Part shown: positions 13,445 through 52,842 of the stretch, in pieces
Layout of the letters: each line of letters begins with the position of its first letter
How positions within the stretch are numbered: the first letter of the stretch is position 1
DNA from: Shigella phage MK-13
Length of the DNA stretch: 64,000 nt
Reading direction: 5' to 3' (one strand)
Sequence record: MK509462
Notes under the pieces: model-generated
What the model was told of the DNA's origin: nothing
The model's input: only the letters and a program-made list of their open reading frames with translations
The model's database searches: none
Translations under genes and position numbers: made by a program

Positions 13445-13653
13445 TTAGATTCACCCATGACGATAACGGAAGCGCCATTACGGAAGCGCCCATATTCAGG
13501 CGGAAGACCTTCGCGAACTTTCTGTGCGAACGCTTCAGAAACCACCAGACGGCCAACCAGAGGGTCTTTTTGTTTCGGAGTGGACTCAAAGTAATCACCA
13601 AAAGTCGCTTCCATATCCAGTAGGGACATATCTTCAATTCGTTTCATTGCCAT
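13441..13653 (-). CDS. hypothetical protein (70 aa)
   Basis: Minus-strand ORF. Confidence 0.45.
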   Translation of the reverse strand: MAMKRIEDMSLLDMEATFGDYFESTPKQKDPLVGRLVVSEAFAQKVREGLPPEYGRFRNGASVIVMGESK

Positions 13654-13670
13654 GATGTATTTCCTTGCAA

Positions 13671-13720
13671 AAAGAAAGGGGAACGGGCTAATATTAACCC
13701 ATTCCCCTTTATTGAAGAAC
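13671..13720 (-). terminator. Terminator-like hairpin with conserved 5' flank (GTTCTTCAATAAAGGGGAA...TTCCCC + T-run on minus strand)
   Basis: Stem GGGGAA(c)GGG / CCC(a)TTCCCC at 13678-13707; minus-strand T-run after it; shares flank with the 10763-10810 element. Confidence 0.5.
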
Positions 13721-13735
13721 GCAATCGCAATCAGA

Positions 13736-13903
13736 TTACTTTTTCTTCAGCTCGTCCAGTTTGGCTTCGATTTGTTCCAGGATGTCTTTACCCTTCTGAA
13801 CAATCACTTCACCGTCTTGCGCGTGTTTGCGGAATACCAGAGCGCCAGCTACGAAGCCGACAACCACACCAGGAAGCGCATAAACCAGCAGATCTTGTAA
13901 CAT
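13736..13903 (-). CDS. small membrane protein (55 aa; not in the ORF track)
   Basis: ATG at 13903 preceded by GAGGA SD; translation MLQDLLVYALPGVVVGFVAGALVFRKHAQDGEVIVQKGKDILEQIEAKLDELKKK. Confidence 0.45.
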   Translation of the reverse strand: MLQDLLVYALPGVVVGFVAGALVFRKHAQDGEVIVQKGKDILEQIEAKLDELKKK

Positions 13904-13906
13904 GAT

Positions 13907-13935
13907 AATATCCTCACTTTATAGGTGAGGATATT
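13907..13935 (-). promoter_or_regulatory. 11-bp-stem hairpin enclosing the SD of the 13736-13903 gene
   Basis: AATATCCTCAC ...7 nt... GTGAGGATATT; sits between the stop of the 410-aa gene (13940) and the next ATG (13903); no U-run. Confidence 0.4.
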
Positions 13936-13939
13936 TATA

Positions 13940-15172
13940 TCAGCGTTTCAAGAGTGCCATGAGGTTGACGCTGCTGGGCTTCGACTTGTCTTCAGGCTTG
14001 ACAGCTGTCTTCGGGCGTTCACACACCTCAGATGGTTCCCAGCGCGTACCCTTTTGCAGGTGCCAAATGTGCAGAGGGATGCCAGTATCAAAGAACACAG
14101 GCATCTTCCACTTCTGGACGCCTGGAACGTGCCCTGCAGGAGCCTTTTCGCATAACAGGGTATCTGGTAACCAGAGTGAACGGGCTTCCCAGAGCGCTGC
14201 ACAGGAGTACTCCGGCCAGATGCGTTCCATGTAGTCGATCTCATCCCAGGTACGCTCGGCATCCCACCCAATGTAACGGGTATTCTTCTCACGGAAGAAC
14301 TTCTTCAGCCAGCATGCACCGGAGGTTTCAAAGTTCAGGCGATTGATGAACGTCAGATGCCCGAACTCAGCCACGCATTCCTTGAACGCCTGTTCAAGGT
14401 CGGCCTCAAGGATGTCACACTCTTCATCAGTGATAGGACAACCATTGATCTTTTTCTTCCCATGCTTGGTCACCCAATCATCACGGTTGGACAAGAACGC
14501 CGCGCCGTTGCGGTTGGACTCGCTGCCATCACGATCACGCAGCATGAAGCCAGGGACGTCGATATCCCACATATTGCCAAACACCATGTTCAGAGCTTCC
14601 AGGAAGTTCCAGGCGCTCAGGCGGCCGAAGTATTTCCAGGACATCGCCGTTTCCCACAACTTAGTGAACTGGTCGCCCTGGGGCTTGGTCTCCAACATCG
14701 GTCGGAATGCTTCCATCTGGGAGCGCCCTGCCAGCCAGTCAATGTAGGACTGAACACATGGGATCATCTTCGACTTGCGATAGCGGCAGTCGGTATCGAA
14801 GCGCATGCGCTCAAAGTTCAGGTTGTACCAATCAGAGAAGCGCTGCATCTCTTCTTTGGACTGAGGGGGTACAGGGAACTCACTGTAGATTGTCCATGGA
14901 CCGATGGCGTTGTAACAGCAGCCCCAAAGGAATGCCATCCAGATTTTGCGCTCGATCTTCTCAAGCTGCGTGATGCCTTCTGTGACTTCGATCGCATAAT
15001 CCATCAGACGCATCTGCTGGTTGTGCTCTTCGGTGTAGGACAGCGCCTCCACCCAAGCCTTGAGCAGGTACATGCGATTCTCAGGCTTGCGATAATCAAC
15101 AGCCAGGTCAATCGGGTACTTCCATTCAGCCGGGGGTGTATAGCCCGTCGGCATTTTAGATAGATGCGTCAT
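13940..15172 (-). CDS. hypothetical protein (410 aa); possible DNA-modification enzyme, unverified
   Basis: Long ORF with ATG start at 15172; no motif recognised; placed among nucleotide-metabolism genes. Confidence 0.6.
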   Translation of the reverse strand: MTHLSKMPTGYTPPAEWKYPIDLAVDYRKPENRMYLLKAWVEALSYTEEHNQQMRLMDYAIEVTEGITQLEKIERKIWMAFLWGCCYNAIGPWTIYSEFPVPPQSKEEMQRFSDWYNLNFERMRFDTDCRYRKSKMIPCVQSYIDWLAGRSQMEAFRPMLETKPQGDQFTKLWETAMSWKYFGRLSAWNFLEALNMVFGNMWDIDVPGFMLRDRDGSESNRNGAAFLSNRDDWVTKHGKKKINGCPITDEECDILEADLEQAFKECVAEFGHLTFINRLNFETSGACWLKKFFREKNTRYIGWDAERTWDEIDYMERIWPEYSCAALWEARSLWLPDTLLCEKAPAGHVPGVQKWKMPVFFDTGIPLHIWHLQKGTRWEPSEVCERPKTAVKPEDKSKPSSVNLMALLKR

Positions 15173-15512
15173 CTTTCGCTTCCTCTTCAGGAGCCAGCTG
15201 AATATCTTCCGGTTTCACGAACCCCATCGGGCGTTCCCACATATCGATAAAGCGACGGTCAGCGGTCACGAACCACAGACGGGCTGCAGTGTGGGTCTTA
15301 CCCGAGATGAACATCTGGGCATTCGTCTGGGTGCGGAACGGAGCCGCTTGCAGCCACTGACCGAAGTCTTTGGACGACGGGTTGGCGTTCAGCTGGAACT
15401 GAGGGATGACACAGTTCTTTTCAGGGATCAGGCGCACAGCCGTAATGTGCTGGGCGTTTCCGGTGTAGTCAATTGCAACGGCCACAGCATTGCGAGGGAT
15501 TTCGATTTTCAT
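15156..15512 (-). CDS. hypothetical protein (about 118 aa)
   Basis: ATG at 15512 overlaps the upstream stop as ATGA (translational coupling); ORF-track start 15647 would overlap the upstream gene. Confidence 0.45.
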   Translation of the reverse strand: MKIEIPRNAVAVAIDYTGNAQHITAVRLIPEKNCVIPQFQLNANPSSKDFGQWLQAAPFRTQTNAQMFISGKTHTAARLWFVTADRRFIDMWERPMGFVKPEDIQLAPEEEAKDDASI

Positions 15513-15712
15513 TTTGGTTCCTTGAATATTTTGTAACCAGCAGCGCCGATAGACATCACCGCGCCAATACAGTACATCACAGTCACGTTCAACTTCTCTG
15601 AGGTTGTTAAGTCCAGAGGGGTGAAATGATAGGCCAGGGCAGCGCACATTGAAACGGCTGCCATAACCAGACCGACGAATAACAGATAATTAGACAACCG
15701 TTTCATGATCAC
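15509..15712 (-). CDS. small membrane protein (67 aa)
   Basis: Two hydrophobic segments; stop overlaps the next start. Confidence 0.5.
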   Translation of the reverse strand: MIMKRLSNYLLFVGLVMAAVSMCAALAYHFTPLDLTTSEKLNVTVMYCIGAVMSIGAAGYKIFKEPK

Positions 15713-16626
15713 CCCTTCTTCATCAGGTCAAGGAGAGAGCGCGACGCTGCCTTCGGTGCTTCCGGCTGGGCACTCGCCTTGGTTTTAGTTTTAGATGCCT
15801 TCTGCGGCTTCTCAGGCACTCTGTGCGCCAAAGGATCATTACCGCCGACCTCACGGGTCATCGGATTGGTTTCGCAGTAGGCGTAGAAGTCTTTGGTGTG
15901 CATGTCAACATCGCGCAGTTCAGAGCGTGTCTGATGACAAATCGCATTACCCACAACCCACAGCGGGGCGTCGTATGGGAGCACCGCCAACTCGGACTGC
16001 TGTTTGGTCGTGAACTCCTGGGTGTTGGCCTCTGGTGCTTTATACAGGATATCCTGTCCGCTGTAATCATCAACAGCCACAGTGAAGCCCAGCGTCAACA
16101 TTTCGGTCTTCGATTTCTCAAACTCCTTGGAGTAAGATTCGTTGCGCGACCAGCCGGAGTCCCCTGCTTCTTTACCAGAGCGACCACGGATGCGGGCATC
16201 GTACTGATAGCGGTCGGGGTACGCAAAGTACAGCAGCGCCAATGATTCAATCGGATAATTCTTGAACATCCACTCAGGACGCCATTTGTCCGACAGCATG
16301 AGGGGTTCGCCCTCGCACACCAGAGTGTAACCCTGCGCCAGCCAGCCCTTGACCAGATCACGGGCGATATCACCCGAGCCTGTGGCAGCATGAATGGCGT
16401 CCATGGAAGTCCAGGAAGCCAGGCCGGATTTGTTGGACACAGTGTACTGGCCGACGAAGATCAACTTCAGCTCTTCGAATTTCAGGCCAAACGGGCGCGT
16501 CTTATCACCAATGGTGTAGGTGAGTTCGGTAGGCTCCAGCTTCGTACGGAGCCATTCGATGAACTGTACAACACGAGTACCCTTACCCGTGCCGCTGGTT
16601 CCTTTGATTACGATGATCTTTGCCAT
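15709..16626 (-). CDS. P-loop kinase (PNK-kinase-like / candidate nucleotide or DNA-base kinase)
   Basis: ATG at 16626; N-terminal Walker A KIIVIKGTSGTGKGT; 305 aa. Confidence 0.55.
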   Translation of the reverse strand: MAKIIVIKGTSGTGKGTRVVQFIEWLRTKLEPTELTYTIGDKTRPFGLKFEELKLIFVGQYTVSNKSGLASWTSMDAIHAATGSGDIARDLVKGWLAQGYTLVCEGEPLMLSDKWRPEWMFKNYPIESLALLYFAYPDRYQYDARIRGRSGKEAGDSGWSRNESYSKEFEKSKTEMLTLGFTVAVDDYSGQDILYKAPEANTQEFTTKQQSELAVLPYDAPLWVVGNAICHQTRSELRDVDMHTKDFYAYCETNPMTREVGGNDPLAHRVPEKPQKASKTKTKASAQPEAPKAASRSLLDLMKKG

Positions 16627-16931
16627 TATACAGCATCCTCAATACGCCAGCTCACGCCGCCCATCCATGGTGCCCAGAATACAGCAACCTGTGGGCGGCC
16701 ATTCTCTTCAAACTTCACTTTATACTGGTCGTCGAAGTTATAGAAGATTTCATCCGCTTCAGAGCGCTGACCGATCTCCACCAGTACGTCATGAAGAGCC
16801 TTGGCTGCGCCGATAGGAGTCGGAGTCTCCTGCTGGCGAATGAAGTTGTTGACATGGATAATCACGCCATCCATATCGCTATCACCGGAACGCTTGTCTG
16901 GGGTTTCCCCAAACTTGGATTGTTCTTGCAC
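16626..16931 (-). CDS. hypothetical protein (101 aa)
   Basis: Minus-strand ORF between the kinase and the HAD hydrolase. Confidence 0.5.
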   Translation of the reverse strand: MQEQSKFGETPDKRSGDSDMDGVIIHVNNFIRQQETPTPIGAAKALHDVLVEIGQRSEADEIFYNFDDQYKVKFEENGRPQVAVFWAPWMGGVSWRIEDAV

Positions 16932-16940
16932 GATGTCCTC

Positions 16941-17720
16941 CTATCGGACGTATTGATAATGACCAATCAAGCGGTTCACCACTTCAACAATATTGTGATT
17001 CAGGAAGTCGAAGTGGTTCTGGCCTTCTACTGGTTTAATATAAAGCATATCTTCCGAGTTCGAAAGATCCAGTTTTTCATAATTGCCCTGAGGAACAAAG
17101 ATGACGAAGATATTGTTCAGGCCGCACGGCTCAACATACTTCGGATTGTCATCAATCAAGACATCGCCTGCCAGCAGATGCTTTTCGTCAGTACTGACAA
17201 ATCCGTTGAAGATACCAGGGAACTTGTCGTAGACAAACTGGCGCTTGCTGCGCTCGTGTTCCGGCTCACACTTGGACACTGCGATGAATTCAACATTGTC
17301 AAAGTCTTCGAGCAGAATCTTCTTCAGATTCACCAGGAACTCGTAAGCACCAGGAAGCGGGTTCATCTTGGCGTACAGGTCAGGGCGACGCCACCAGTCC
17401 ATAGGATCACGCCCTGTAGGAGCATACATCCATTGCCCAGCGAGGTACACGCGGCGTATCAACCACGCCGGATGTGCACGTTCTCGCATCAGAATAGCCA
17501 GGTCGCCAGCATGAGCCATATAGCACTCTTTGGTGATCGGCTGGAACTGATATGACTTATGTTCCCCCGTAGCAATAGCAGCGGCAGCGATGTTCTCTTC
17601 GTTGAACCACTGCACCCAAGGGGAGAGGCTGTCGACCAGCGTCAGGTCAACATCCACGAGGACGCGATACAGACCACCGACCTTTGATTTCATATCATAG
17701 AGACAGACCAGGTTGTTCAT
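16941..17720 (-). CDS. HAD-superfamily hydrolase (nucleotidase/phosphatase-like)
   Basis: HAD motif I VLVDVDLTLVDS (DxDxT) and motif IV AGDVLIDDNPKY (GDxxxD). Confidence 0.6.
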   Translation of the reverse strand: MNNLVCLYDMKSKVGGLYRVLVDVDLTLVDSLSPWVQWFNEENIAAAAIATGEHKSYQFQPITKECYMAHAGDLAILMRERAHPAWLIRRVYLAGQWMYAPTGRDPMDWWRRPDLYAKMNPLPGAYEFLVNLKKILLEDFDNVEFIAVSKCEPEHERSKRQFVYDKFPGIFNGFVSTDEKHLLAGDVLIDDNPKYVEPCGLNNIFVIFVPQGNYEKLDLSNSEDMLYIKPVEGQNHFDFLNHNIVEVVNRLIGHYQYVR

Positions 17721-18067
17721 TTGTCTTCCTCAACTTTGTCGTAGCCCGTAGCAACGCACTGTTCTTCGGTACAATCCGCATACAGAACAACAGACGCCTG
17801 CTTCACGTAGGTGGTGCAGTGGTAGGTTTCGTCTTCCTGGATGGAATCGTCATAGTTGCAGACAGTTTGGAGCGGACCTGGGGTGGTGTTATCCAGCGCT
17901 GCATGTGCCTTGATGGTGTCTTCCATCTTGGCCACGGCTTGTTCGTTGGTGAACGTCGGCGCGTCGAGGTCAGGGGTTGACACGACGTCCGCCAGGGTAG
18001 AGCATGCGGTGGTAGAGAAAGCCAGAGCGCACACCAGAAGAATCTTATTGAGTTTCATTTCAATCAC
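17717..18067 (-). CDS. putative lipoprotein / secreted protein (116 aa)
   Basis: Signal-peptide-like N-terminus KLNKILLVCALAFSTTAC with a lipobox-like cysteine. Confidence 0.5.
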   Translation of the reverse strand: MIEMKLNKILLVCALAFSTTACSTLADVVSTPDLDAPTFTNEQAVAKMEDTIKAHAALDNTTPGPLQTVCNYDDSIQEDETYHCTTYVKQASVVLYADCTEEQCVATGYDKVEEDK

Positions 18068-18087
18068 CTGTTTGTCAAAGGGTTAAC

Positions 18088-18120
18088 AGGGGGAATTATA
18101 TCCCCCTTTGGTTTATTGAA
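18088..18120 (-). promoter_or_regulatory. Intergenic hairpin (AGGGGGA-attata-TCCCCCT) with TTCAATAAA flank
   Basis: 7-bp GC stem between the DNA polymerase stop (18121) and the next start (18067). Confidence 0.4.
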
Positions 18121-21120
18121 TCAACCTTTCTTCTTTTGCATCATGGCAAGAAGGTTCACACGACGCTTGTGTGACCAGCCGACCACGTCAAGGATGGACT
18201 GAATCGGGTCGATGAAGGACTTCTCAAAGGCTGTGTGGTAATCCACCCATTTACCCATACCCAGTTCCTCGGGGAAGAACTCAGGATATGCGAAGTAATT
18301 CTGGCCAAACGGGTTGCCATTCTTCAGCAGTACCATGTTGACCTTATCACCCGACTCAATCATTGGCAGGCCGAGGTCTTCGTTCTTCTCAACCAGACGG
18401 TTGTAACCCACACAAGCCTTGGCAGCGTAGTGAGCACCAGAGATGAACGAGCCGTCGGCGGCCACACACTTCTCTATGTCGGACACACCGGATGCCTTGG
18501 CGATATCGTCTACAGAGAGCTTCATGTACTCCTCTTTGTACTGGGAGATGAGCGTCTGTACTTCCTCTTCTGTGCCGAGCAGGATCTTCTCATAGCACTT
18601 GACAAGGCGCTCACGACACCATTCCGGCGTGGTGGACTTACGGGCTTCCAGACCTTTGAACTTGATCTTCGGCTTCTCGTACTTGATACCCTCACTGTCG
18701 TACACGGCCATGGCATACATCTTCTTGGCTCGCCAGACGGCAGCTGATGCAATTACTTCACGCTCCCACACCATGCGCTGTTCAAATCCGTTCATGGTGT
18801 TACACAGAAGCTGTGCCCACTCATTGGTCTTCGGCTGGTAGTTGTCTTTGATCCATTGGTCGATATTATCAACCATAGCATGATGGTCAGTAACATCAGG
18901 CCACAACTGCTTGACAAGACGCTCAATGCAGATGTAGTTGGAGTCGGTATCACCCGCGATGACGAAGTCCTGGCCTGTCGTGCCGCACAGCTTGTTCAGA
19001 TAGTCATCGGTGTAGCGCTTGTTCCACTTGTTGATCAGCTGACCGGACGTTGTGATGGCTTCGGCGATGTTGAGGTTGAAGTACTCTTTGAACCAGACGT
19101 TTGAGATCGCGCCATAGCCCGCGTTCATCAAGATCTTCAGACCTTGCTGTAGGGTCTCTTGAGCAACGCCCAGATCTTCCCACTTCTTCATCACTTCGGT
19201 CAGTGCATCAAGATCGATGTTCTTGTGCTCTTCATACCACTCTGGATCGTAGTAGCGGGACTTCATCGCAGACTCAAGATGGAAGTCACCCTTCGACATC
19301 TCTTTACACCATCCAGCCCACTGCTCGTACTTCAGCCCCTTGGCTTTCTCTACTTTACGGTCGCTGTAGATGCCGCGCATGATTTCAGACAGGAACGACA
19401 TCTTCTCGTTGCTGAAGAACTGAACGTTCGGCGTGAAGGACACGTTGTAGCGGCGCAGGGTTTCAAAGTGGAACTCACCCAGGGCAACCAGTTCATCAAC
19501 AACCTGCAGGCGTTCGTCAATCGCACGCAACAGCTTATCGTGAAGGGCTTTCATCAACCGACGTTTGTGCATCGGTGTTGCCATGTTATTCATCTGAGCA
19601 GCCAGCTCTTCACACATAGCCTCAATGATCTCACGGCGCTGGTGTTTGTCGCCAACGATAGTCTCAGGACCGAGGTTGTATTGCTGGATGATGTGAGGGT
19701 AGAGGGAGTTCAAGTCCTCAGAGAAGACCCAGAAGTAGATTCCTGGTGTCACCTCCATGACGTATGCGCCCTCAAAATCGGTCGGACCATCGTATACACG
19801 CTGGATCTTAGGCACTATCCCCTTCTCATACAGACGATAGTAGCACATGGCCAGCCACGGAGCCACAGTTCCCAGGCCGTCTTCATAGTTGGACTTGGTG
19901 CGGTACGCAAGGACGAACATCAGCTGAAGCAAACGCAGCTTCTGTTCTAGACGCCACACCAGCTTGACGTCCTTGATACCATATCGGGTGTGTTTGGCAT
20001 AGTCGTTGAAGTACAGGTCAAAGAGCGACTTGCTCTCACTGTAGTCCATCTTCTTCTCACCCAGCTCACAGTAAGCAATCCAGTCAAGAGAGTAGCGCTC
20101 ACGGGTGGTGTACGTGTGCTTCTTGTAGATCTGCATATAATCGAGCATAGGACAGCCCACGAACTGATACGTCGTGATATCGCCCTTCTTATCGCGAATG
20201 ATACGCTTCTTGATGACACCCCATGGGCTGAGGCGGTTGGTTTCGGCTTCGCCCAGTACCTGGTTCATGCGCTCAACAAGATACGGGCTATCGAACGTTT
20301 CAATGTTCCAGCCTGTCCAGCCGTCGAACTGACGCTGTGACCAGAAGTCAAGGAAAGATCGCAGCAGATCCTGCTCGGTGACAAACTCCTTGTACTCCAC
20401 CTCAAGTCCACCGATCTCCGCGTCTTCTGGATCGTATCTGAACTTCGCACGATCCTTCGCGCACGGCATACCCCACACCATGAACTTATTGGTCGCCATG
20501 TCCTGAAGCTGGATAAGCGTGATAGGGAACGCCGCATTCATGTCCTGGGTGATCTTGCCATTGCTATCAATGATAGGGAACTGGTCGGTCACGTTGTTGC
20601 TGATAAAGGAACTGGGGAAGTGCTCACGGATGAAGTCATGGTTGGCCAGTACCTGCTGATGGAAGCGGCGGATGCGTGCCTCGCTACCTTTGAACGTCTG
20701 CTGCTCAATAGTCGGATGAGGGAATGGACCCTTGGTCATCTCCCCATCTTTCCACCCGGCGGTGAACACTTCGATATCGAGGTTGGCGATATGGATATTG
20801 GAGTAATCCGGCTCGATCTTCCCAGGAAAGCTGTGGGCGATGAACTGGTATGCATAATCGGTCTGCCCGTAAATGGCTGCACCCTGGACTTCCTTATACT
20901 CCTCAAGGTAGTTGTCGGCAGTGCGCATGTCAGGGAACTTCTTAGAGACCAGGGGTTCGTTGAGCAAGCCGACCTTTTCAACATTTGAATAATCAGCCGT
21001 GGGTAAATAGAGAGTGGGTTCGAATTTCTTTTTCAACAGACGGCGATTACCCATGTCATCTGCGATTCGAATCAACAGGTCATTGCCCCGGCGGGCAACG
21101 TTCGTATAGAAAACGGTCAT
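18121..21120 (-). CDS. DNA polymerase, family B (T4 gp43-like)
   Basis: 999-aa ORF, ATG at 21120; exonuclease motif ANLDIEV, polymerase motif A DLNSLYPHI, motif B KILMNAGYG, motif C VIAGDTDS. Confidence 0.95.
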   Translation of the reverse strand: MTVFYTNVARRGNDLLIRIADDMGNRRLLKKKFEPTLYLPTADYSNVEKVGLLNEPLVSKKFPDMRTADNYLEEYKEVQGAAIYGQTDYAYQFIAHSFPGKIEPDYSNIHIANLDIEVFTAGWKDGEMTKGPFPHPTIEQQTFKGSEARIRRFHQQVLANHDFIREHFPSSFISNNVTDQFPIIDSNGKITQDMNAAFPITLIQLQDMATNKFMVWGMPCAKDRAKFRYDPEDAEIGGLEVEYKEFVTEQDLLRSFLDFWSQRQFDGWTGWNIETFDSPYLVERMNQVLGEAETNRLSPWGVIKKRIIRDKKGDITTYQFVGCPMLDYMQIYKKHTYTTRERYSLDWIAYCELGEKKMDYSESKSLFDLYFNDYAKHTRYGIKDVKLVWRLEQKLRLLQLMFVLAYRTKSNYEDGLGTVAPWLAMCYYRLYEKGIVPKIQRVYDGPTDFEGAYVMEVTPGIYFWVFSEDLNSLYPHIIQQYNLGPETIVGDKHQRREIIEAMCEELAAQMNNMATPMHKRRLMKALHDKLLRAIDERLQVVDELVALGEFHFETLRRYNVSFTPNVQFFSNEKMSFLSEIMRGIYSDRKVEKAKGLKYEQWAGWCKEMSKGDFHLESAMKSRYYDPEWYEEHKNIDLDALTEVMKKWEDLGVAQETLQQGLKILMNAGYGAISNVWFKEYFNLNIAEAITTSGQLINKWNKRYTDDYLNKLCGTTGQDFVIAGDTDSNYICIERLVKQLWPDVTDHHAMVDNIDQWIKDNYQPKTNEWAQLLCNTMNGFEQRMVWEREVIASAAVWRAKKMYAMAVYDSEGIKYEKPKIKFKGLEARKSTTPEWCRERLVKCYEKILLGTEEEVQTLISQYKEEYMKLSVDDIAKASGVSDIEKCVAADGSFISGAHYAAKACVGYNRLVEKNEDLGLPMIESGDKVNMVLLKNGNPFGQNYFAYPEFFPEELGMGKWVDYHTAFEKSFIDPIQSILDVVGWSHKRRVNLLAMMQKKKG

Positions 21121-23832: not shown

Positions 23833-23857
23833 AGGGGCTTAATGCCCCTTTTGTTAT
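23833..23857. terminator. bidirectional rho-independent terminator
   Basis: GGGGC-ttaat-GCCCC with T-runs on both strands, between convergent genes (stops at 23827 and 23854). Confidence 0.6.
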
Positions 23858-24312
23858 TCTTCCCAGAAGTCGTCATCGTCCCCGACGGCGGCCAGTTCCG
23901 TGTCCAGGTCTTCATCAGTGAACGGCGGTAGTACCCCATTCTGAATCAGATAATCCATTTCATCGTCTTCCAGCTGCAGGTCAGTGGCAATATACAGCGC
24001 TCCGCTGCCCTCTTCGTCCGTCTCGATACTGTACGAAGTGTATGGCACCCCATTCACTGTAATGATGATAGACGTTGGATCCTCGGGATCTACGTGCGCC
24101 TCGAACGGCACACCATCAATCGGCGCATCTTCCAGGAAGGTGGCAAGGGCTACAGCGGCGCGAACAACATCAGTGCCTTCAACGCCTGCATAGATCTCTT
24201 CCGCGCCCGTCTCTTCACGATCAAACAGCTCAATCGTGATACCGTCTTGAACACCAGTCCATACGGGGATGTCATTGGTGTATTCTGATTCAAACAATTT
24301 GGAGGTTGGCAT
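23854..24312 (-). CDS. hypothetical acidic protein (152 aa)
   Basis: Minus-strand ORF, Asp/Glu-rich. Confidence 0.55.
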   Translation of the reverse strand: MPTSKLFESEYTNDIPVWTGVQDGITIELFDREETGAEEIYAGVEGTDVVRAAVALATFLEDAPIDGVPFEAHVDPEDPTSIIITVNGVPYTSYSIETDEEGSGALYIATDLQLEDDEMDYLIQNGVLPPFTDEDLDTELAAVGDDDDFWEE

Positions 24313-24457
24313 GTTGGGTTCCTCAGTGGGTTAGCCATATGGGGTATTTAGGCTTCCCGCACCGCCAGGCCTGGTTTGTACAGGACGATCTCACGGAAAT
24401 ATTCAAGAAAGGTTTCATAGATACCCCACACGGGTTGTATGGGGTATTTAGAAGGGA

Positions 24458-32430: not shown

Positions 32431-32438
32431 CTAAATAT
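32431..32438 (+). promoter_or_regulatory. late-promoter-like motif CTAAATAT
   Basis: Variant of the T4 late promoter TATAAATA, about 40 nt upstream of the gp6-like start. Confidence 0.3.
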
Positions 32439-32477
32439 CTTCAACACCATATTCAAGTTCAGGTGATGGAGATAAAC

Positions 32478-34259
32478 ATGGCCACACAAACAGTTCCTTC
32501 ACTCGATGTCAGGGCTTTCGAGTATCTTATCAAGAAGCGCATGAAAGCTGATCCAACTTTCAAGGATTATGACTTTGAAGGTTCTGGTCTCAGTGCAATC
32601 GTGCGTATCTTGGCCTCGGATGCCAACTCTATCGGGTTCATGCAGAACATGCTGAATGGCGAAAGCCATCTTCACTCTGCCCAACAGCGTTCTAATGTCG
32701 GTCTGGCGGCGGGGTTCTTGTCTTACACCCCTCACAACCACCAGGCGGCGTTCCTGTACGCAAACGTCACAGTCACTCCATATGACGCCAGCACGGCTCC
32801 AGACACGATTGTAATGGACCGCCGGGCGATGTTCATTGGAGCGAAGGATGGCAAATCCTACAACTTCACGGTTGACCAACCTGTGAGCGCCTCTCTTGTA
32901 GACGGCTCTTACAAGTTCGAGAACATCAAACTCGTACAGGGCAACTGGCTGTACAAGTCCTATGACGTGGAAGGCAGCGCGATCTCTACCTATGTGATCC
33001 CATCTTCTTCCGTGGACATCAACCACATGGTGGTGCAGGTGCAGGAATCTGAGACCTCCGACGTGCGGTCTACCTTCTCACGATATGTCAGCCCGTTCGA
33101 TTTGAGCCAGTATGCACAACTCTACTTCGTTGAGCTGGGGTTGGACGGGATGTACACGTTTGAATTCGGCGACGGTTATATCTGCAAGCGAGTAGAAGAC
33201 GGCAACGTCGTGTATCTTCAGTATCTGGAGACCTCTGGTGCAGACGGCAATGACATCACTGCCTTGTCCTCTGCGTCTTCCATCGGGGGCTTCAACCTTG
33301 TAGATGTTGAGCTGGTGTCAGAACGTTCTTCCGGCGGTACAGACCCAGAGAGCATTGAAGACATCAAGCGCCTTGCTCCGCTGGCTTATCAGGCTGAGGG
33401 TGCGGCGGTAGCCGAAGTCGATTATGCTGTGTTGACTGAGCGCCTGTTCTCCAACGTCTCCCGCGCCAAAGCATATGGTGGAGACACGCTATCTCCGCCC
33501 GACTCTGGATACGTTTACATTGCTGTAGTACCTTCTGTTGGTGAGACGCTGTCGGACGCTGAGAAGGCAGATATCGTGGCGACTTTGGACAAGTACAATG
33601 TGGGTACGATTACACCCAAGATTGTCGACGCCGAACTGACTTATGTTGATGTCACCACCCGCGTGTTTTGGGATCCGACTTCCACGGCCTACACCGAAGA
33701 GCAGTTGAAGACAGTCGTAAAGAACGGTGTTGTCAACTGGGGCTTGGGGAACCTGGAAGGATTCGACGAACTGTTCGATAAAGAGCAGTTGCAGTCGGCC
33801 ATCACCGACATGGACAGATCGATAGCGTCAAACATCGCTTCCGTGAAGTACAAGCGCCACTTCAAGCCGGACTATGGGGTACTAGACAGCTTCACGTTCG
33901 ATTATGGGCGCTCGATTGCATCTGGTTCTGTGCGTATCAGTGGGTTTAAGCCGCTTCCGGCCGAGGTCGACTTCACTTACTACATGCGCGATGTCAGTGG
34001 TGTCCTGAATATGTACAAGGTGAGTACAGCAGACACGACCAAAGAATATCTGGTACAAGCTGTTGGAACGGTTGATTATGTGAATGGCGTTGTTGAACTC
34101 CAGCGCATCACAGTATCCAACTACAACACCGAGGGAGTGACTATCATCGTGTCCCCAGACGGTCTTGACCAGAACATTCAGGCCACACAAAACCAGGTGC
34201 TTCGCATCGGTGCTGTAACTGTGGAGCCGGAGGTGCGTTATGTCCAAAGATCTCAATAA
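32478..34259 (+). CDS. baseplate wedge protein (T4 gp6-like)
   Basis: ATG at 32478 with GGAG SD (ORF-track start is GTG); N-terminal FKDYDFEGSGLSAIVRILASD resembles the gp6 N-terminus as recalled. Confidence 0.6.
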   Translation: MATQTVPSLDVRAFEYLIKKRMKADPTFKDYDFEGSGLSAIVRILASDANSIGFMQNMLNGESHLHSAQQRSNVGLAAGFLSYTPHNHQAAFLYANVTVTPYDASTAPDTIVMDRRAMFIGAKDGKSYNFTVDQPVSASLVDGSYKFENIKLVQGNWLYKSYDVEGSAISTYVIPSSSVDINHMVVQVQESETSDVRSTFSRYVSPFDLSQYAQLYFVELGLDGMYTFEFGDGYICKRVEDGNVVYLQYLETSGADGNDITALSSASSIGGFNLVDVELVSERSSGGTDPESIEDIKRLAPLAYQAEGAAVAEVDYAVLTERLFSNVSRAKAYGGDTLSPPDSGYVYIAVVPSVGETLSDAEKADIVATLDKYNVGTITPKIVDAELTYVDVTTRVFWDPTSTAYTEEQLKTVVKNGVVNWGLGNLEGFDELFDKEQLQSAITDMDRSIASNIASVKYKRHFKPDYGVLDSFTFDYGRSIASGSVRISGFKPLPAEVDFTYYMRDVSGVLNMYKVSTADTTKEYLVQAVGTVDYVNGVVELQRITVSNYNTEGVTIIVSPDGLDQNIQATQNQVLRIGAVTVEPEVRYVQRSQ

Positions 34260-36316: not shown

Positions 36317-36324
36317 CTAAATAC
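36317..36324 (+). promoter_or_regulatory. late-promoter-like motif CTAAATAC
   Basis: Lies within the 5' arm of the 36319-36357 hairpin. Confidence 0.35.
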
Positions 36325-36357
36325 CCCTAGATGAAACGAACACATTTAGGGGTATTT
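36319..36357 (+). promoter_or_regulatory. 11-bp-stem hairpin immediately upstream of the tailspike start
   Basis: AAATACCCCTA ...17 nt... TAGGGGTATTT ending 3 nt before the ATG at 36361. Confidence 0.45.
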
Positions 36358-36360
36358 GAA

Positions 36361-39255
36361 ATGGCTAATAAACCAACACAGCCTGTTTTCCCTCTCGGTC
36401 TGGTGGCTGAAGAGCAGTCTACTTTGGCTGGTATCCTCAACACGGGTACGATTGAGCATGGACCAGATGCTGTCCTGACTTTACCCGAGGGTAATGCCAG
36501 TGCAGGTCTCCCGTCTTCTGTTCGCTACAATGCCGACTCCGACGAATTTGAGGGCTTCTACGAAAATGGTGGATGGTTGCCGCTGGGTGGCGGTGGTATC
36601 CGCTGGGAAGCCCTTCCGCATGCCTCTACGGCAACGCTCACTGAAGGGCGAGGCTATCTGGTAGACAACTCCACAGGCGTCTCTACGGTGGTGTTCCCTT
36701 CCCCTACGCGCATTGGCGATTCTGTTACAGTCTGTGACTTGTATGGAAAGTTCTCCCTGTATCCCCTGACCATTGACCCAAATGGTCGCCCAATGTATGG
36801 CTCTGTAGAGCCTATGACGCTCTCCACCGACAGCGTATCTGCGACCTTTACCTGGTCTGGTGACGCGCGTGGCTGGATTGTGACTGCTGGCGTCGGCCTT
36901 GGGCAGGGGCGCGTGTATAGCCGCACGATCTTCACTGAAACCGTTTCGGTAGACACCGCTCAAGTTACTCTGACAACGCAGCCGTCGATTGTTGATGTGT
37001 ATGTTGACGGCAAGCGCCTGCTGGAATCAAAGTATTCCCTCAATGGTTTCAATGTCGACTTCAGTCCATCAATCCCATCAGGTTCCGAGCTGCAGGTCAT
37101 CCAATACGTCCCGATCCAGTTAGGCAATGGCTCCGGTGGTTCCGGCGGCGGTACGGTTATCACTTGGATCTACAATAGTGGATCAGCTGCGGGTGGTGAA
37201 ACCGAGATCGAGTTGGACGTGGATGCCGAAGATGTTTCTGAGATCTTTATCGATGGATCCCGCCAGCAAAAAGGTCTGGGCTTCACTTATGACTCCGTTA
37301 CGAAGATCATCACGCTGGCCGACGAACTCGAAGCTGGTGATGAAGTTGTTGTCGTCATCAATGGCGACCCAACCCTGTACAATCAGATCGACCGTACACC
37401 AAACGAAGTGGCGCGTTCCGTGAACGTGCCGAATTCTCAGGTTATTTTGTCGTCCGATACCATCACCAAACTGGACGGAAAGACGGTTATCTATGATGTG
37501 GTGGCGCAAAAGATTTGGAGCTTACCTTCTGGTATCCCGACAGGTTCTTCTGTTGTATCTGTGAGTGGGAGCACTCTGACATATGCACCAGGGAATGTTG
37601 TTGTTTCTTTGCTCTTGCCGACTTCTGAAAGTTTGGTCGTTTTCCAAGAATTATTAGAGTCTAATGCGGGGGTTGGGTCTATTGGTGGCGTTGCTGTGGA
37701 ATTAGGAGACCGAAACTCGCTAAACTCGAACCAGACCGTGCTCGGGCGTATTGTGGCCAGCAAAACTCTTTCTGGTATTTACAACAAATATTCAGTTGTT
37801 CCCAACACAGGTAAAGTTGCTGACGGTGTGGTATTAATTGACCGCCTGGACGGTAATCAACTTGAAATTCAATTTGAAGACTATATTGATGTTCGCGCTT
37901 TCATGTTCGGCGCAATGACAGATCAGGAAACATTACAGGCAGCATTGGATTATGCGGATAGTGTTTCCGGACATTGCGTAATTGGCATCACACCCAAAAA
38001 CAAAAATGGAGACCCTTGGGTGTTCACGCATCTGCATATTGGTTCTAAAACTATTGTTAAGGGTGCAGGCGGCTGGTTGAAATTCGCAGATAATGTTTGT
38101 AATGATGCGACCAAAGCATATTATCTTGTCGAGAACTTTGATGCACAGGATACCCATTTAATAGATTTGTATATAGACGGAAACCAAGCAAGCAACACAT
38201 TGTATGCTGTAGCCGACATCTTAACGTTCGGTGGGAATCGATGCTCTATCACCAACTGTAAGCTCGTGAATGCCCCCGACTCAGGTCTGATGTTTGCGAC
38301 TACCAAAAACTGCTGGGTGAATGGTCTTTATGTAGAAAACACGCGCGACCTTGGGATCTACTTATCTGCAAGTGTGGCAGGCGGTACTCGTAACTGCGCA
38401 ATGTCCAACCTGGTGTTGCGCGACTGCGCTCAAGGGGCTATGGGTTTCAAACGCTACGTTGCCGACATTGTTGTGGATAATGTTGTAGCCACCAACTGTG
38501 GTAATGGAATCACCTTTGAAGGTTTTGAAGTTGTGACGCCGGGTATGAACCCATCCAATATCACTATGAGCAATATACGTCTGCGTGATATTGGATTTGG
38601 TTATCGGTCTGTTTCAGCGGCAGAGCGAGCTTTAAGTTTCGATTATGCTCGCGGCATCCGTATTAGCAACCTCAGCGTTCAGAACTGTTCTGGTGTCGGT
38701 ATCTTCTTCAGCACTAACACAAGTACTGGTATTTACATTAATGGCGCTAACTTAACTGGATATGCTGCTAACCCACAAATCGCGAGTGGTGTCCCAAACA
38801 ACGATGGTATTCAGTGTAATGGTGCTTCTGGTTTTGAACTGATTAATGTGAACTTGGAAGGGTTCGCAAGATACGCAGCTTGGTTCCTGAGCTGTAGTGG
38901 CGGCAGCGTGGTCGGTGGTCGTTGGACTAATACCCAGGCTAGTGGATATAATGCATACAACGGCGCACGTGTAAATGCAGCCTGTAGTTTCACTAAGTTT
39001 TCGCCTGAGTTTATTAGTGGGGCGAGCGGAACAGACCTAGAATGGTTTAATGGTGCGACTGGAATTACCAAAGACACGATACTGAACAATGCTACTGGCC
39101 CAGCAAAATATGGGTATGTTGTCGTCTCTGGTCCTACGCCTGTGGCTACAGTAACCCCCCGTTTTATTGGGCAGGAAGTCTGGAGTGCAGGTGCGAGTTC
39201 CTGGTGGAAATCACATGGCTTAACCTCCTCAGACTGGAAACAGATGTCAAATTGA
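36361..39255 (+). CDS. tailspike protein (right-handed beta-helix), 964 aa
   Basis: Repeated beta-helix coil motifs (VATNCGNGITFEG, VQNCSGVGIFFST); in the tailspike cluster. Confidence 0.75.
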   Translation: MANKPTQPVFPLGLVAEEQSTLAGILNTGTIEHGPDAVLTLPEGNASAGLPSSVRYNADSDEFEGFYENGGWLPLGGGGIRWEALPHASTATLTEGRGYLVDNSTGVSTVVFPSPTRIGDSVTVCDLYGKFSLYPLTIDPNGRPMYGSVEPMTLSTDSVSATFTWSGDARGWIVTAGVGLGQGRVYSRTIFTETVSVDTAQVTLTTQPSIVDVYVDGKRLLESKYSLNGFNVDFSPSIPSGSELQVIQYVPIQLGNGSGGSGGGTVITWIYNSGSAAGGETEIELDVDAEDVSEIFIDGSRQQKGLGFTYDSVTKIITLADELEAGDEVVVVINGDPTLYNQIDRTPNEVARSVNVPNSQVILSSDTITKLDGKTVIYDVVAQKIWSLPSGIPTGSSVVSVSGSTLTYAPGNVVVSLLLPTSESLVVFQELLESNAGVGSIGGVAVELGDRNSLNSNQTVLGRIVASKTLSGIYNKYSVVPNTGKVADGVVLIDRLDGNQLEIQFEDYIDVRAFMFGAMTDQETLQAALDYADSVSGHCVIGITPKNKNGDPWVFTHLHIGSKTIVKGAGGWLKFADNVCNDATKAYYLVENFDAQDTHLIDLYIDGNQASNTLYAVADILTFGGNRCSITNCKLVNAPDSGLMFATTKNCWVNGLYVENTRDLGIYLSASVAGGTRNCAMSNLVLRDCAQGAMGFKRYVADIVVDNVVATNCGNGITFEGFEVVTPGMNPSNITMSNIRLRDIGFGYRSVSAAERALSFDYARGIRISNLSVQNCSGVGIFFSTNTSTGIYINGANLTGYAANPQIASGVPNNDGIQCNGASGFELINVNLEGFARYAAWFLSCSGGSVVGGRWTNTQASGYNAYNGARVNAACSFTKFSPEFISGASGTDLEWFNGATGITKDTILNNATGPAKYGYVVVSGPTPVATVTPRFIGQEVWSAGASSWWKSHGLTSSDWKQMSN

Positions 39256-41473: not shown

Positions 41474-41481
41474 CTAAATAC
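41474..41481 (+). promoter_or_regulatory. late-promoter-like motif CTAAATAC
   Basis: Overlaps the 5' arm of the 41478-41510 hairpin. Confidence 0.35.
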
Positions 41482-41510
41482 CCCATATTGGCAAATCCTC
41501 TATGGGGTAT
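41478..41510 (+). promoter_or_regulatory. 10-bp-stem hairpin sequestering the start region of the next tailspike gene
   Basis: ATACCCCATA ...13 nt... TATGGGGTAT; the 3' arm contains the ATG at 41502 and the SD-like region for the ATG at 41517. Confidence 0.45.
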
Positions 41511-41516
41511 CTTCAA

Positions 41517-44297
41517 ATGTCTAGAAACGTCGAGAGCATCTTTGGAGCGGTTGTAACAGCCCCGCACCAGATTCCATACACTTACACCGCAACGGGTGGA
41601 GAGACGTTTATCTCCCTCCCGTTCTACCCTGTTACAGGCTTCATCACCATCAATGGTGGGGTTCAGGTTCCTGTCGACAACTATGAAATTGATGGTAACA
41701 CTGTGAACCTCGGTCGAGCGCTAGAGGCTGATGATGTAGTGTACTGTCTGTTCGACAAGATCCTGTCCCCAGAAGATTATGAAAACGGGATCCGAATCTA
41801 CAAGTTCCAGGCCGTTGGCAACGAGACCTCATTCACCCCAGACTTCACGACGTATGGTGTGCAATCCCTGTATATCGATGGGAAGTTCCAGGTTCCTGGG
41901 GTTGACTACAATTACAACAGCGCAACTGGTGTGGTGTCATTCCTGAATGGATCTCCGACTGCTGGTGTTTGGGTTGTGGCTGAGATGTCTGTGAAGCAAA
42001 ACTATCTGGCTCTGTCTTCGGAGGGTGGTGCCAGTTTGGTAGGCACGACTTCTGGCAGCACTGTGCAGGAAGAGTTGAACGATGTTGCTGGGCAGCTAGC
42101 CAATTTAGAAGATGATCTTTCTACATTGAAAATTGCAGTGGCCAGTGTTTCCTTTACTCAATTTGGGGCAGTTGGTGACGGCGTGGCTAACGACACGCAC
42201 GCCGTAAAACTGGCGTTCGATTATGCTCTTGCTAATAACGTTGCAGTCGAGCAGCATAGCGGTGTTTTCTTGCTGGATGGCACTGAATACATTGATATCA
42301 GAAACCTGCAAACCGACCTCACCGGATGCGTCCTTAAGCCATCCGCATCATGGACTGGTCAGATTGTGATTTCTCAGACTGGCGCGCCTGTCACTTACGG
42401 TTCTAGTTCTGATGTCGTGACAAAACTTAATACTAACAGTCCAGCCAGCCGCGCCGTTGGAAGTACGATAATGAGCGGGATCGCAACTGATAGCACTTTG
42501 GATGGATGCTACGTCAAAATATCGACTTCTCAGCCAATGTTCGTATTCAGGGACGCTACTTACACAAGGAAAGACCTGAACAGAGTTTATAACCGAGGCA
42601 ACATAGAGAACCCGTTACGCTATGGCCTAGGAACGAATGTTACAGAAGTTATTGCGCTGAAAATTCGCAAAGACGTGCAGACTGTTAAAGGGCTTACTAT
42701 TGATGAAAGCCTGTCGAAAAACTATCGCATTGTGTACATCAACAACGCATCACGCGTTAAGCTTGTCAACACGTCTTTCATCAATGCCCCGATAACGCAG
42801 GATTTCAGTGATACCAGAATTGATATTGCAGGCTCATATGACGTGGAAATTGACGGCCTGTTCACACCGTCTGTGGTCGATTCGTTCAACGGCACTGGTG
42901 ACATCTACTCGTATTCTCTGGGTATAAGCGAGAGCATGAATGTCAGAGTGAAGCATATGACTGCTAACGGTGAAGGATGGGGCGCGACCGGTAGCAACAA
43001 CAGCGCAAACATTACTTTCGAAGAATGCGACTTGAGCAGGATTGACTTTCATATGCCTTTCCAGGGATATTTGCGTGTCAATAAATGCAATGTTGGACGA
43101 TACGGTGTAGTTGTAACTGGCATTGGTGACCTAATCATTGATGATGTCATCTTTAATGGTTCAACTGACCAGCTGGGTTCAATTATCGCCACTCGTCCTG
43201 ACTGCGGCGGGTTCTTCGATGGTGACCTGTATATGTCAAATGTGACTATCGCTGGTCGCCGTTCCGGTCAGATTTCGGCACTAATCCAGGGACCTGCTGA
43301 TGCTGGGCAGGGACCAGCATCAGGATCGCCCATCAACAGCACTCTTTTCAATAAAGTTGTTATTCGCGACCTAAAACTGAAAGACGGATTCTTTGAGCAG
43401 ACTTTTGCCACGCTACTGTATTCCCAGCGTGATTCACAACTACTGTTCCCAAAAGTGGTCGATATTGACGGGCTAAGTTTTGGGGCGCTGCCAAAATCAT
43501 CTGGGGTTGGCCTGAATATCGACTTCTCGCGATTTAAAGCGCTGTTCTCTGATATGACAAACTCAGAGCATCCAGTAACAGGAAGAAAAACGACCGATAT
43601 TATTTTACGTAATATTCAAACACCATATCTGTCGGTAACAGCGGCATCAGCGCGTCATAACCCCTCTATTGTCGCAAGTAACGTGCGTCATGTGATAAGT
43701 GGCGAAGTAGATACGCTGCTGGAGATTAACCAGCGTGGCAGATATTTGTTAGATTCATGCTCACTTGAGCAGTTGAAGCTTTTTTATGGTTCGAACCCCA
43801 ATGGCCTGGTAAGTCTCACAATGCGTGGCGGCAGACTTCAGCAGCCTGTTGCAGCAACCATGCCTATTTCTGGTGAAACCACGCACAGCGTCACCCTAGA
43901 TGGAACGGATATTGTGTGCCAGTTCAACGGGCAAGACTCAACATACCCGATCACCAAAGCAATCATTGCCAGGGCGCTTGTTAAAGACTGTAGATATTGG
44001 GATGTTTCTGGCGCAAGACTAAACAATTTGAGTTTCGTTAAGCCTGAAAGCACTAGCACCACTATAACTGTGACTATGAAGGTTGGTCAAAAATTAGCAG
44101 TGTCTACCGGATACACAGCAGGCAATACTTACACAAGAAGCAACTTTACCGCGTTGTGGGAGTCAGGTGCCAAGCAAGTAGCAAGCATTGGCGCGGCAGG
44201 CAACGTGATTGTCACATATACGGTATCAGGTGATTCGGTTTCACAGATAGTAATGACAAGTCCAGCAAGTAATGAGATCCGCGACGTGTCAATTTAA
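41517..44297 (+). CDS. tailspike protein, about 926 aa
   Basis: Start ambiguous (41502 or 41517); beta-helix-like repeats; N-terminal anchor-like region. Confidence 0.7.
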   Translation: MSRNVESIFGAVVTAPHQIPYTYTATGGETFISLPFYPVTGFITINGGVQVPVDNYEIDGNTVNLGRALEADDVVYCLFDKILSPEDYENGIRIYKFQAVGNETSFTPDFTTYGVQSLYIDGKFQVPGVDYNYNSATGVVSFLNGSPTAGVWVVAEMSVKQNYLALSSEGGASLVGTTSGSTVQEELNDVAGQLANLEDDLSTLKIAVASVSFTQFGAVGDGVANDTHAVKLAFDYALANNVAVEQHSGVFLLDGTEYIDIRNLQTDLTGCVLKPSASWTGQIVISQTGAPVTYGSSSDVVTKLNTNSPASRAVGSTIMSGIATDSTLDGCYVKISTSQPMFVFRDATYTRKDLNRVYNRGNIENPLRYGLGTNVTEVIALKIRKDVQTVKGLTIDESLSKNYRIVYINNASRVKLVNTSFINAPITQDFSDTRIDIAGSYDVEIDGLFTPSVVDSFNGTGDIYSYSLGISESMNVRVKHMTANGEGWGATGSNNSANITFEECDLSRIDFHMPFQGYLRVNKCNVGRYGVVVTGIGDLIIDDVIFNGSTDQLGSIIATRPDCGGFFDGDLYMSNVTIAGRRSGQISALIQGPADAGQGPASGSPINSTLFNKVVIRDLKLKDGFFEQTFATLLYSQRDSQLLFPKVVDIDGLSFGALPKSSGVGLNIDFSRFKALFSDMTNSEHPVTGRKTTDIILRNIQTPYLSVTAASARHNPSIVASNVRHVISGEVDTLLEINQRGRYLLDSCSLEQLKLFYGSNPNGLVSLTMRGGRLQQPVAATMPISGETTHSVTLDGTDIVCQFNGQDSTYPITKAIIARALVKDCRYWDVSGARLNNLSFVKPESTSTTITVTMKVGQKLAVSTGYTAGNTYTRSNFTALWESGAKQVASIGAAGNVIVTYTVSGDSVSQIVMTSPASNEIRDVSI

Positions 44298-52812: not shown

Positions 52813-52820
52813 CTAAATAC
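52813..52820 (+). promoter_or_regulatory. late-promoter-like motif CTAAATAC
   Basis: 23 nt upstream of the ATG at 52843. Confidence 0.35.
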
Positions 52821-52842
52821 CTTCAAAATTGAGGGTATCGAT

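Follow-up and report, generated by a model that had tools for sequence, protein, structure and literature searches.

A predicted hairpin overlapping a putative late-promoter box covers the start of a conserved small gene in Shigella phage MK-13

The intercistronic region and its hairpin

The 64,000-nucleotide stretch of Shigella phage MK-13 DNA analysed here (sequence record MK509462; referred to as the window) comes from an Ackermannviridae (ViI-like) phage whose closest relative is the Agtrevirus SW16-7 (96% identity). The analysis concerned a small gene at 13736..13903 and the 36 nt that separate it from the upstream gene, which encodes a 410-aa amino-acid:DNA transferase involved in thymidine hypermodification (13940..15172; Pfam ADDT, E = 2e-61). 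All of the features described at this locus are located on the minus strand, as are the genes in that part of the window. The small open reading frame (ORF) starts with ATG, encodes a protein of 55 aa (MLQDLLVYALPGVVVGFVAGALVFRKHAQDGEVIVQKGKDILEQIEAKLDELKKK) that has a transmembrane helix at its N-terminus and a charged helix at its C-terminus, and matches phrog_3879 of the PHROG database (E = 1.5e-32). A previous sequence-only reading had described this ORF with a GAGGA Shine-Dalgarno (SD) sequence and an ATG at 13903; it was found as described, on the minus strand, which that reading had not stated. Homologs with 80-100% identity were present in 217 cultured Ackermannviridae genomes, mostly under the labels 'hypothetical' or 'putative membrane protein', and annotated counterparts include LIMEstone1 ORF191, CBA120 orf249, AG3 orf00248 and Vi01_200. 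The gene was therefore unlisted in the track available to the sequence-only reading, but not in the public relatives, where it is annotated. The conservation in related phages that had been proposed as a check was confirmed: the variable sites at codon positions 1, 2 and 3 numbered 6, 3 and 37, respectively, and the replacements were conservative. Based on its conservation and on this codon-position pattern, we consider the small ORF to be a real gene.

The intercistronic sequence, read 5' to 3' on the minus strand, is TGA (13942-13940)-TATAAATATCCTCACCTATAAAGTGAGGATATTATC-ATG (13903). It comprises the 5' arm of a hairpin, AATATCCTCAC (13925..13935), a 7-nt loop, CTATAAA (13918..13924), and the 3' arm, GTGAGGATATT (13907..13917), which holds the SD at 13915-13911 and leaves a spacer of 7 nt to the ATG (13903-13901). 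The resulting 11-bp helix is perfect, with 5 of its 11 pairs being G-C. These coordinates agree with the previous placement of the SD in the 3' arm of a perfect 11-bp stem just past the stop codon of the upstream gene, since the 5' arm extends from 5 to 15 nt past the TGA of the transferase gene. The 3' arm is followed by AUCAUGUUACAAG, which contains no U-run, again as previously claimed. An intrinsic terminator at the hairpin was rejected because of this tail and because the terminator scan made no call there; a known RNA family was likewise rejected, as Rfam yielded sub-threshold hairpin noise only.

Folding of the 81-nt context gave a free energy of -28.3 kcal/mol, compared to a mean of -12.2 kcal/mol for shuffled sequences (z = -5.81, with 0/200 shuffles as good), and the isolated hairpin accounted for -13.4 kcal/mol. 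In the minimum free energy (MFE) structure of the predicted read-through RNA the helix was extended (13899..13947) by the pairing of AACG.UGAUA (13947-13938), which includes the upstream stop codon, with UAUCA.UGUU (13907-13899), which includes the AUG. In this RNA the SD window and the AUG had mean pairing probabilities of 0.91 and 0.98, respectively. For an RNA starting at the predicted late start site, A13926, which retains 2 nt of the 5' arm, the respective values were 0.45 and 0.55; in its MFE structure the SD bases 13913-13911 were looped and 13915-13914 lay in a weak stem. An intrinsic terminator with a 16-bp stem followed by CTTTTT was identified by the scan at 13669..13710, 190 nt downstream of the hairpin, where it closes the small unit; its counterpart is annotated in LIMEstone1 and Marshall. 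The pairing of the SD and AUG (approximately 91-98%), the lack of a U-run and the position of the true terminator 190 nt further on together support computationally the suggestion of the sequence-only reading that the hairpin is a control element rather than a terminator.

All of the hairpin variants found in Kuttervirus, Agtrevirus and Limestonevirus folded well (z = -3.4 to -5.6). Variation within the stem included one pair occurring as A-U, G.U or G-C and another occurring as C-G or U.G. The sense RNA of the G.U-bearing variants was 2.3-3.9 kcal/mol more stable than the antisense RNA, which favours an element acting at the level of mRNA.

Putative late-promoter boxes and recurrence of the box-hairpin arrangement

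Two features were overlooked by the sequence-only reading, namely a late-promoter box in the 5' arm and the recurrence of the design beyond one site. The box, TATAAATA (13932..13939), is of the T4 late-promoter -10 type (core TAAATA, 13937-13932). It consists of the first eight bases past the upstream stop codon and overlaps the 5' arm (13935-13925), which shares the last 4 nt of the box. A 'putative late promoter' is annotated at the homologous position of LIMEstone1, and a factor-independent terminator was placed by the same authors after the LIMEstone1 ORF; the promoter calls in that genome rest on similarity to T4 consensus sequences (PMC3296691). According to the T4 spacing rule, which is established knowledge (PMC3014915), late transcription is predicted to start at an A 6 nt past the box (13926). 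Published assignments of late promoters in this phage family are predictions; in AG3, seventeen TATAAATA-like sites have been found (PMC3121705). A sigma-70 promoter at the hairpin was rejected: none was called, and a TTGAAA upstream is wrongly spaced from any -10 element (judged by eye).

The 8-mer TATAAATA, allowing at most one mismatch, showed no enrichment in the window (15 sites compared to 20.2 expected), and the full T4 consensus was rejected as the promoter of this phage family on that ground. The 6-nt core taken from the LIMEstone1 annotations, in which the boxes are mostly (C/A)TAAATA, was therefore compared with same-composition hexamers. Fourteen other hexamers with the composition of TAAATA served as controls, the position bin was set at 12-60 nt upstream of same-strand gene starts, and significance was determined by Fisher's test. 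The fraction of TAAATA sites within this bin was 8/22 (36%) in the window (p = 5e-4) and 25/54 (46%) in LIMEstone1 (p = 7e-11), compared to 8-10% for the controls, which corresponds to a 4-5x enrichment over control hexamers. Only the 6-nt core TAAATA thus behaves in a promoter-like manner. Many of the LIMEstone1 genes preceded by TAAATA are structural genes confirmed by mass spectrometry (MS). The late sigma factor gp55, the co-activator gp33 and the clamp gp45 are annotated in LIMEstone1 as ORF091, ORF053 and ORF120, respectively; homologs of all three have been reported for AG3 and CBA120, and a gp33-like protein for SW16-7. Homologs of these proteins were not encoded inside the 64-kb window (tblastn), and judging from the related genomes they are very likely present elsewhere in the MK-13 genome.

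To score recurrence of the design, perfect stems of 9 bp or longer (G.U pairs allowed) that start in or beside the box were counted. Such stems were found at 5/22 TAAATA sites in the window, compared to 5/230 (2%) for the control hexamers (p = 6e-4), and at 9/54 sites in LIMEstone1, compared to 13/791 (1.6%; p = 2.4e-6). The 3' arm ended 1-9 nt before the ATG at every TAAATA-stem site. In addition to the focal box-hairpin at 13937 (-), perfect stems in the window were located at 24450-24416 (-), 36318-36361 (+), 41475-41517 (+) and 52814-52843 (+), and a further one at 32432-32478 (+) was obtained when one internal mismatch was allowed. These five non-focal sites lie at late (structural) gene starts and have stems of 9-16 bp with the SD in the 3' arm. 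The loops varied from 4 to 17 nt among the sites, and the stem sequences were unrelated from site to site. An AAATACC / GGTATTT core was common to many of them, and the pairing beyond this core was site-specific (TCCTCAC/GTGAGGA, CCCATAAC/GTTATGGG, CCTTCGCA/TGCGGAGG and CCCCTAGA/TTTAGGGG), which argues for selection on the pairing itself. The LIMEstone1 set includes the endolysin (AAATACCTTCGCA/TGCGGAGGTATTT) and a RuvC-like resolvase, which correspond in function to the products of T4 e and 49. SD occlusion at gene starts was higher with a box than without one (0.70 versus 0.54; p = 3e-6 for LIMEstone1 and p = 0.02 for the window). Within the literature searched, the recognition that this design recurs across Ackermannviridae late genes may be new.

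Two further loci were observed in the course of this survey. At 24450-24320 (-) the box-hairpin precedes only a 31-aa ORF, at the position of a 152-aa structural protein confirmed by MS in LIMEstone1 (ORF173). It appears that a deletion of approximately 390 nt has removed one of a pair of tandem paralogs; the second copy (24312..23854, minus strand) is intact. At 28748-28712 (-) a TAAATA lies 2 nt ahead of a perfect 10-bp palindrome (ACCAGTTGTT caata AACAATTGGT), after which comes GAGT-ATG. Few long ORFs are found nearby; the site may belong to the same class and drive a very small ORF.

The small protein and its transcription unit

The 55-aa protein contains a hydrophobic helix at residues ~5-24, followed by RKH and a charged helix, with a mean hydropathy of 1.8-1.9 in the windows spanning residues 1-25 (19-residue windows, taken every 3 residues). 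This is in line with the previous designation of the gene as encoding a membrane protein, and with the LIMEstone1 annotation, in which the protein has a transmembrane domain and a coiled coil. As a small protein with a transmembrane domain and a charged C-terminus, it has the general build of a holin. The product gave no Pfam match and no match to a PHROG holin, phrog_3879 itself being labelled 'unknown function'; a protein search over 5.8 billion sequences returned 9 close relatives, none of them with a name. The small gene is not adjacent to an endolysin or spanin gene in Ackermannviridae, and in LIMEstone1 both the endolysin (ORF070) and the spanin (ORF099) are far from ORF191. The literature searched contained nothing on Ackermannviridae holins or on the focal hairpin.

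Distant homologs of 43 aa, also matching phrog_3879 (E = 4e-13), were found on environmental phage contigs from IMG/VR (L020-L083; 56-66% G+C). They share the motif VGF[VI]AGALVFRKHA..EAKGK..LDALKG, of which the GALVFRKHA part is near-invariant. The 43-aa homolog was always located upstream of a trio of genes (e.g., L034 1507-3021) encoding a lipoprotein of ~245 aa with a C-terminal transmembrane segment and a weak match to Rz-like spanins, a SprT-like HExxH protein and a holin (phrog_6384, E = 3e-6). This neighbourhood, seen only for the distant environmental homologs, is a lysis-cassette context. The genes of the environmental cassette lack an SD-like leader. A lysis-timing or membrane-acting role for the 55-aa protein is a reasonable guess and nothing more.

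An 82-aa ORF lies antisense to the small gene, at 13652-13900 (+). It is longer than the small gene and misleads gene callers that select the longest ORF; such calling picked it here instead of the small gene, and the focal site was analysed explicitly. Since the codon-position variability fits the minus-strand frame, the 82-aa ORF is regarded as a shadow ORF.

The transferase gene and the gene for a 5-hmdU DNA kinase (HMUD2 by Pfam; 16626..15709, minus strand) belong to a thymidine-hypermodification operon (13940-18124, minus strand). The promoter scan placed at its head a sigma-70-like promoter, TTGATT-18-TATAAT (10/12; 18095..18124), which is the only good one of this type upstream of the small gene and overlaps a bidirectional terminator-like stem (18088-18107). 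The scan found no strong minus-strand terminator between this promoter and 13710, and the operon is tightly packed from the promoter to the terminator past the small ORF. The promoter at 18124-18095 is a candidate origin of early read-through transcripts, and the functions of its genes suggest that the operon is expressed earlier than the late genes. With a late box in front of it, a terminator past it and an upstream promoter separated from it by no strong terminator, the small gene appears to be the last cistron of a longer unit and, at the same time, to form a unit complete in itself (late box, ORF, terminator).

The module varies in its distribution. It is absent as a whole from the Klebsiella Taipeiviruses, in which the conserved terminator directly follows the ADDT stop codon. 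The Taipeivirus KP6F1 (L087 1745-1830) cleanly lacks both the box/hairpin/ORF module and the 70-aa gene that comes after it in the window, and the module therefore acts as a discrete unit that can be inserted or deleted. In the Serratia phage phiMAM1 the ORF is surrounded by other genes, and it has a CTAAATA box and a terminator of its own.

Interpretation and comparison with known systems

This analysis established how the sequence is laid out, how its fold compares with chance, that it is conserved, that the design recurs across the family and how the box is positioned. The explanation that we favour, with a probability of roughly 0.65, is that translation at the focal site is locked in a transcript-specific manner, by a mechanism of the T4 e/soc/49/I-TevI type. 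In the proposed mechanism, long transcripts of the earlier-expressed DNA-hypermodification operon would carry the small gene as their last cistron. On these transcripts the 36-nt intercistronic region would fold, with the 11-bp hairpin and its flanking pairs burying the GAGGA and the AUG, and ribosomes would therefore not initiate. The DNA of the 5' arm would double as a gp55-type late promoter, TATAAATA. Once replication begins, the late RNA polymerase would initiate ~6 nt past the box, near A13926, and produce a monocistronic mRNA of ~250 nt that lacks the 5' arm, has an open ribosome-binding site (RBS) behind a 23-nt leader, and ends at the 13710 terminator. Because the 5' arm overlaps the late box, occlusion would be confined to transcripts coming from upstream, as the late ones would start inside the hairpin. 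The net effect would be that the small protein is made late only, the gene probably being translated from late transcripts alone. We infer that the box functions as a late promoter, where exactly transcription starts, that read-through RNA exists and how translation is affected.

Several observations weigh against this explanation. The RBS of the predicted late RNA is still ~45-55% paired, via weak alternative pairs, and the position of the 5' arm 5 nt past the stop codon means that terminating ribosomes may partly open the arm, so that the lock may be leaky. The late promoter of Ackermannviridae had not been identified (PMC3184105), the 8-mer box is not enriched in the window, as described above, and the literature searched held no transcription-start, transcript or translation data for any Ackermannviridae phage. 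With respect to the hairpin itself, one lineage (L013/L014) carries an internal stem mismatch, and the hairpin of phiMAM1 was no better than shuffles (z = -0.45). Formal covariation was not significant (94% of cells paired, 423/500 shuffles as good). The sample for this count comprised 8 distinct, closely related variants in which no pair had changed on both sides, which makes the count uninformative, and covariation is not claimed as support. Similarly, phiMAM1 and its relative (z = -0.45 and -1.25) were rejected as compensatory evidence and kept as a weak hint only.

The strongest alternative, which we nevertheless consider unlikely, is translational coupling, in which the ribosome terminating on ADDT would melt the 5' arm, the small protein would be made in proportion to ADDT, and TATAAATA would be incidental or secondary. 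The 5' arm, 5-15 nt past the stop codon, is indeed in reach of a terminating ribosome, the stop codon itself lies within the extended helix, and the boxes at 24450 (-) and 36318 (+) are also near an upstream stop, ~10 nt or less from the gene end. However, the sites at 41475, 52814 and 32432 share the architecture at 36 to 270 nt from any upstream stop, and coupling leaves unexplained why the arm is built on a TAAATA box (p = 2e-6), why there is a dedicated terminator and why the box, stem and terminator are retained in phiMAM1, where the neighbourhood is another one. Coupling could also coexist with the lock, as leakiness.

An element of RNA processing or stability that would mark a 3' end of the mRNA of the upstream operon or protect it (as a barrier to exonucleases, a site of the RNase III type or a weak terminator without a U-run), with the burial of the SD as a side effect, appears less probable still. 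A stable hairpin immediately past a stop codon would suit such a role, stems of this kind are common in phage intergenic regions, and several LIMEstone1 late boxes adjoin terminators. Against it stand the lack of a U-run and the canonical terminator 190 nt downstream; moreover, an 11-bp stem is short for RNase III, and a role at the 3' end gives no reason for the 3' arm to lie 1-9 nt before the ATG everywhere, or for a promoter box to form the 5' arm.

It is very unlikely that the arrangement has no regulatory role and that an extended late-promoter consensus (TAAATACC..) merely happens to complement a preferred RBS-plus-spacer sequence (..GGTATTT). The AAATACC / GGTATTT core at many sites would be expected under this explanation, but the pairing runs past the core with site-specific sequences, the focal fold is highly non-random (z = -5.8), and experiments have shown that this arrangement works in T4 gene e. 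The least likely explanation, a palindromic DNA operator through which a dimeric protein would repress the overlapping late promoter, as in I-TevI autorepression, draws on the overlap of the inverted repeat with the box and on a precedent at T4 late promoters (PMC2988022), but fits poorly with loops of 4-17 nt, with stem sequences unrelated between sites and with natural G.U wobble pairs, which work in sense RNA only (the antisense being 2.3-3.9 kcal/mol weaker), and no candidate binding protein is evident.

A broader proposal extends the translational lock from the focal site to the whole genome, and can be put forward only tentatively. It would combine a genome-wide, late-only translation lock in Ackermannviridae, a late promoter of the form (C/A)TAAATA with a start ~6-7 nt downstream, and a 55-aa lysis-timing factor. 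The lock would operate at no fewer than five sites in the window and at least nine in LIMEstone1, covering endolysin, resolvase, tail and baseplate genes as well as the small membrane protein. It looks like a larger share of late promoters would carry the lock than in T4, judged from the few T4 examples given in reviews. The 55-aa protein would possibly be holin-like or antiholin-like, and the first such factor identified in Ackermannviridae.

The lock at the focal site offers a testable model of how the widely used ViI-like biocontrol and therapy phages (Kuttervirus, Agtrevirus and Limestonevirus) may keep proteins late despite earlier-expressed operons. The combined signature of box and hairpin provides a handle, requiring nothing but sequence, on Ackermannviridae late promoters and their likely start sites, and a conserved 55-aa membrane protein that would be kept from early synthesis can reasonably be considered a candidate lysis or membrane-acting factor. 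The mechanism is already known from T4, and the late box and the ORF are already annotated in relatives; as the T4 mechanism has been textbook knowledge since the 1980s, the conceptual gain is modest.

Among known systems, Rho-independent terminators resemble the focal hairpin in being stable stem-loops right after a stop codon. They differ in having a G+C-rich stem with a U-run behind it; the focal hairpin has no U-run, only 5 of its 11 pairs are G-C, and the real terminator lies past the ORF. Translational coupling through intercistronic stem-loops occurs in the RNA phage MS2 and in many bacterial operons. There, as at the focal site, the downstream SD is buried in a stem within the ribosome footprint of the upstream stop; in contrast to the focal design, such systems need no promoter in the stem and predict no dedicated terminator, and the sibling sites described here include some without a nearby stop.

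Closer parallels are provided by T4 soc, 49, I-TevI/II/III and segB and by mobE of Aeh1. These are small late genes or nested genes within early or middle transcripts, and their RBS is hidden in long RNAs and exposed in RNAs from the late promoter (PMC3014915, PMC2988022), the same logic as proposed here; at e, soc, 49 and I-TevI the T4 mechanism is documented (PMC3014915, PMC2988022). The soc and homing-endonuclease cassettes, like the focal unit, are compact promoter-ORF-terminator modules that are present or absent between related phages. Unlike the I-TevI class, the focal gene does not encode a homing endonuclease and shows no evident autorepressor operator, and its signs of mobility are limited to presence or absence and relocation (Taipeivirus, phiMAM1).

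The closest match is the leader of T4 gene e, in which the late promoter is embedded in a hairpin that sequesters the RBS (McPheeters et al. 1986, reviewed in PMC3014915). When this experimentally validated leader (TATAAATACCTTCTATAAATACTTAGGAGGTATTATG) was run through the same pipeline as a positive control, it showed the layout TATAAATACCTTC...GGAGGTATTATG, as at the focal site. The pairing of its SD and AUG was 0.64 and 0.95 in the read-through RNA, compared to 0.16-0.63 and 0.66-0.73 in the late RNAs; by these calculations, the focal site is predicted to be occluded at least as strongly as T4 e. In both cases a TATAAATA box encodes the 5' strand, while the SD lies in the 3' strand, directly adjoining the AUG. 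Both genes lie downstream of an earlier unit, late transcripts start inside the helix (at the focal site, by prediction), and the arms are alike, AAATACC.. pairing with ..GGTATT. The two systems differ in phage family (Straboviridae versus Ackermannviridae), in the number of boxes (two versus one) and in the product (lysozyme versus a 55-aa membrane protein). The effective box of Ackermannviridae, (C/A)TAAATA, is also shorter than that of T4, and the late start and the effect on translation at the focal site are predicted by analogy. Despite the different families, the arms of the LIMEstone1 endolysin gene ORF070, AAATACCTTCGCA/TGCGGAGGTATTT (L085 4246-4290), are nearly those of T4 e, AAATACCTTC/GGAGGTATT (L090 216-253).

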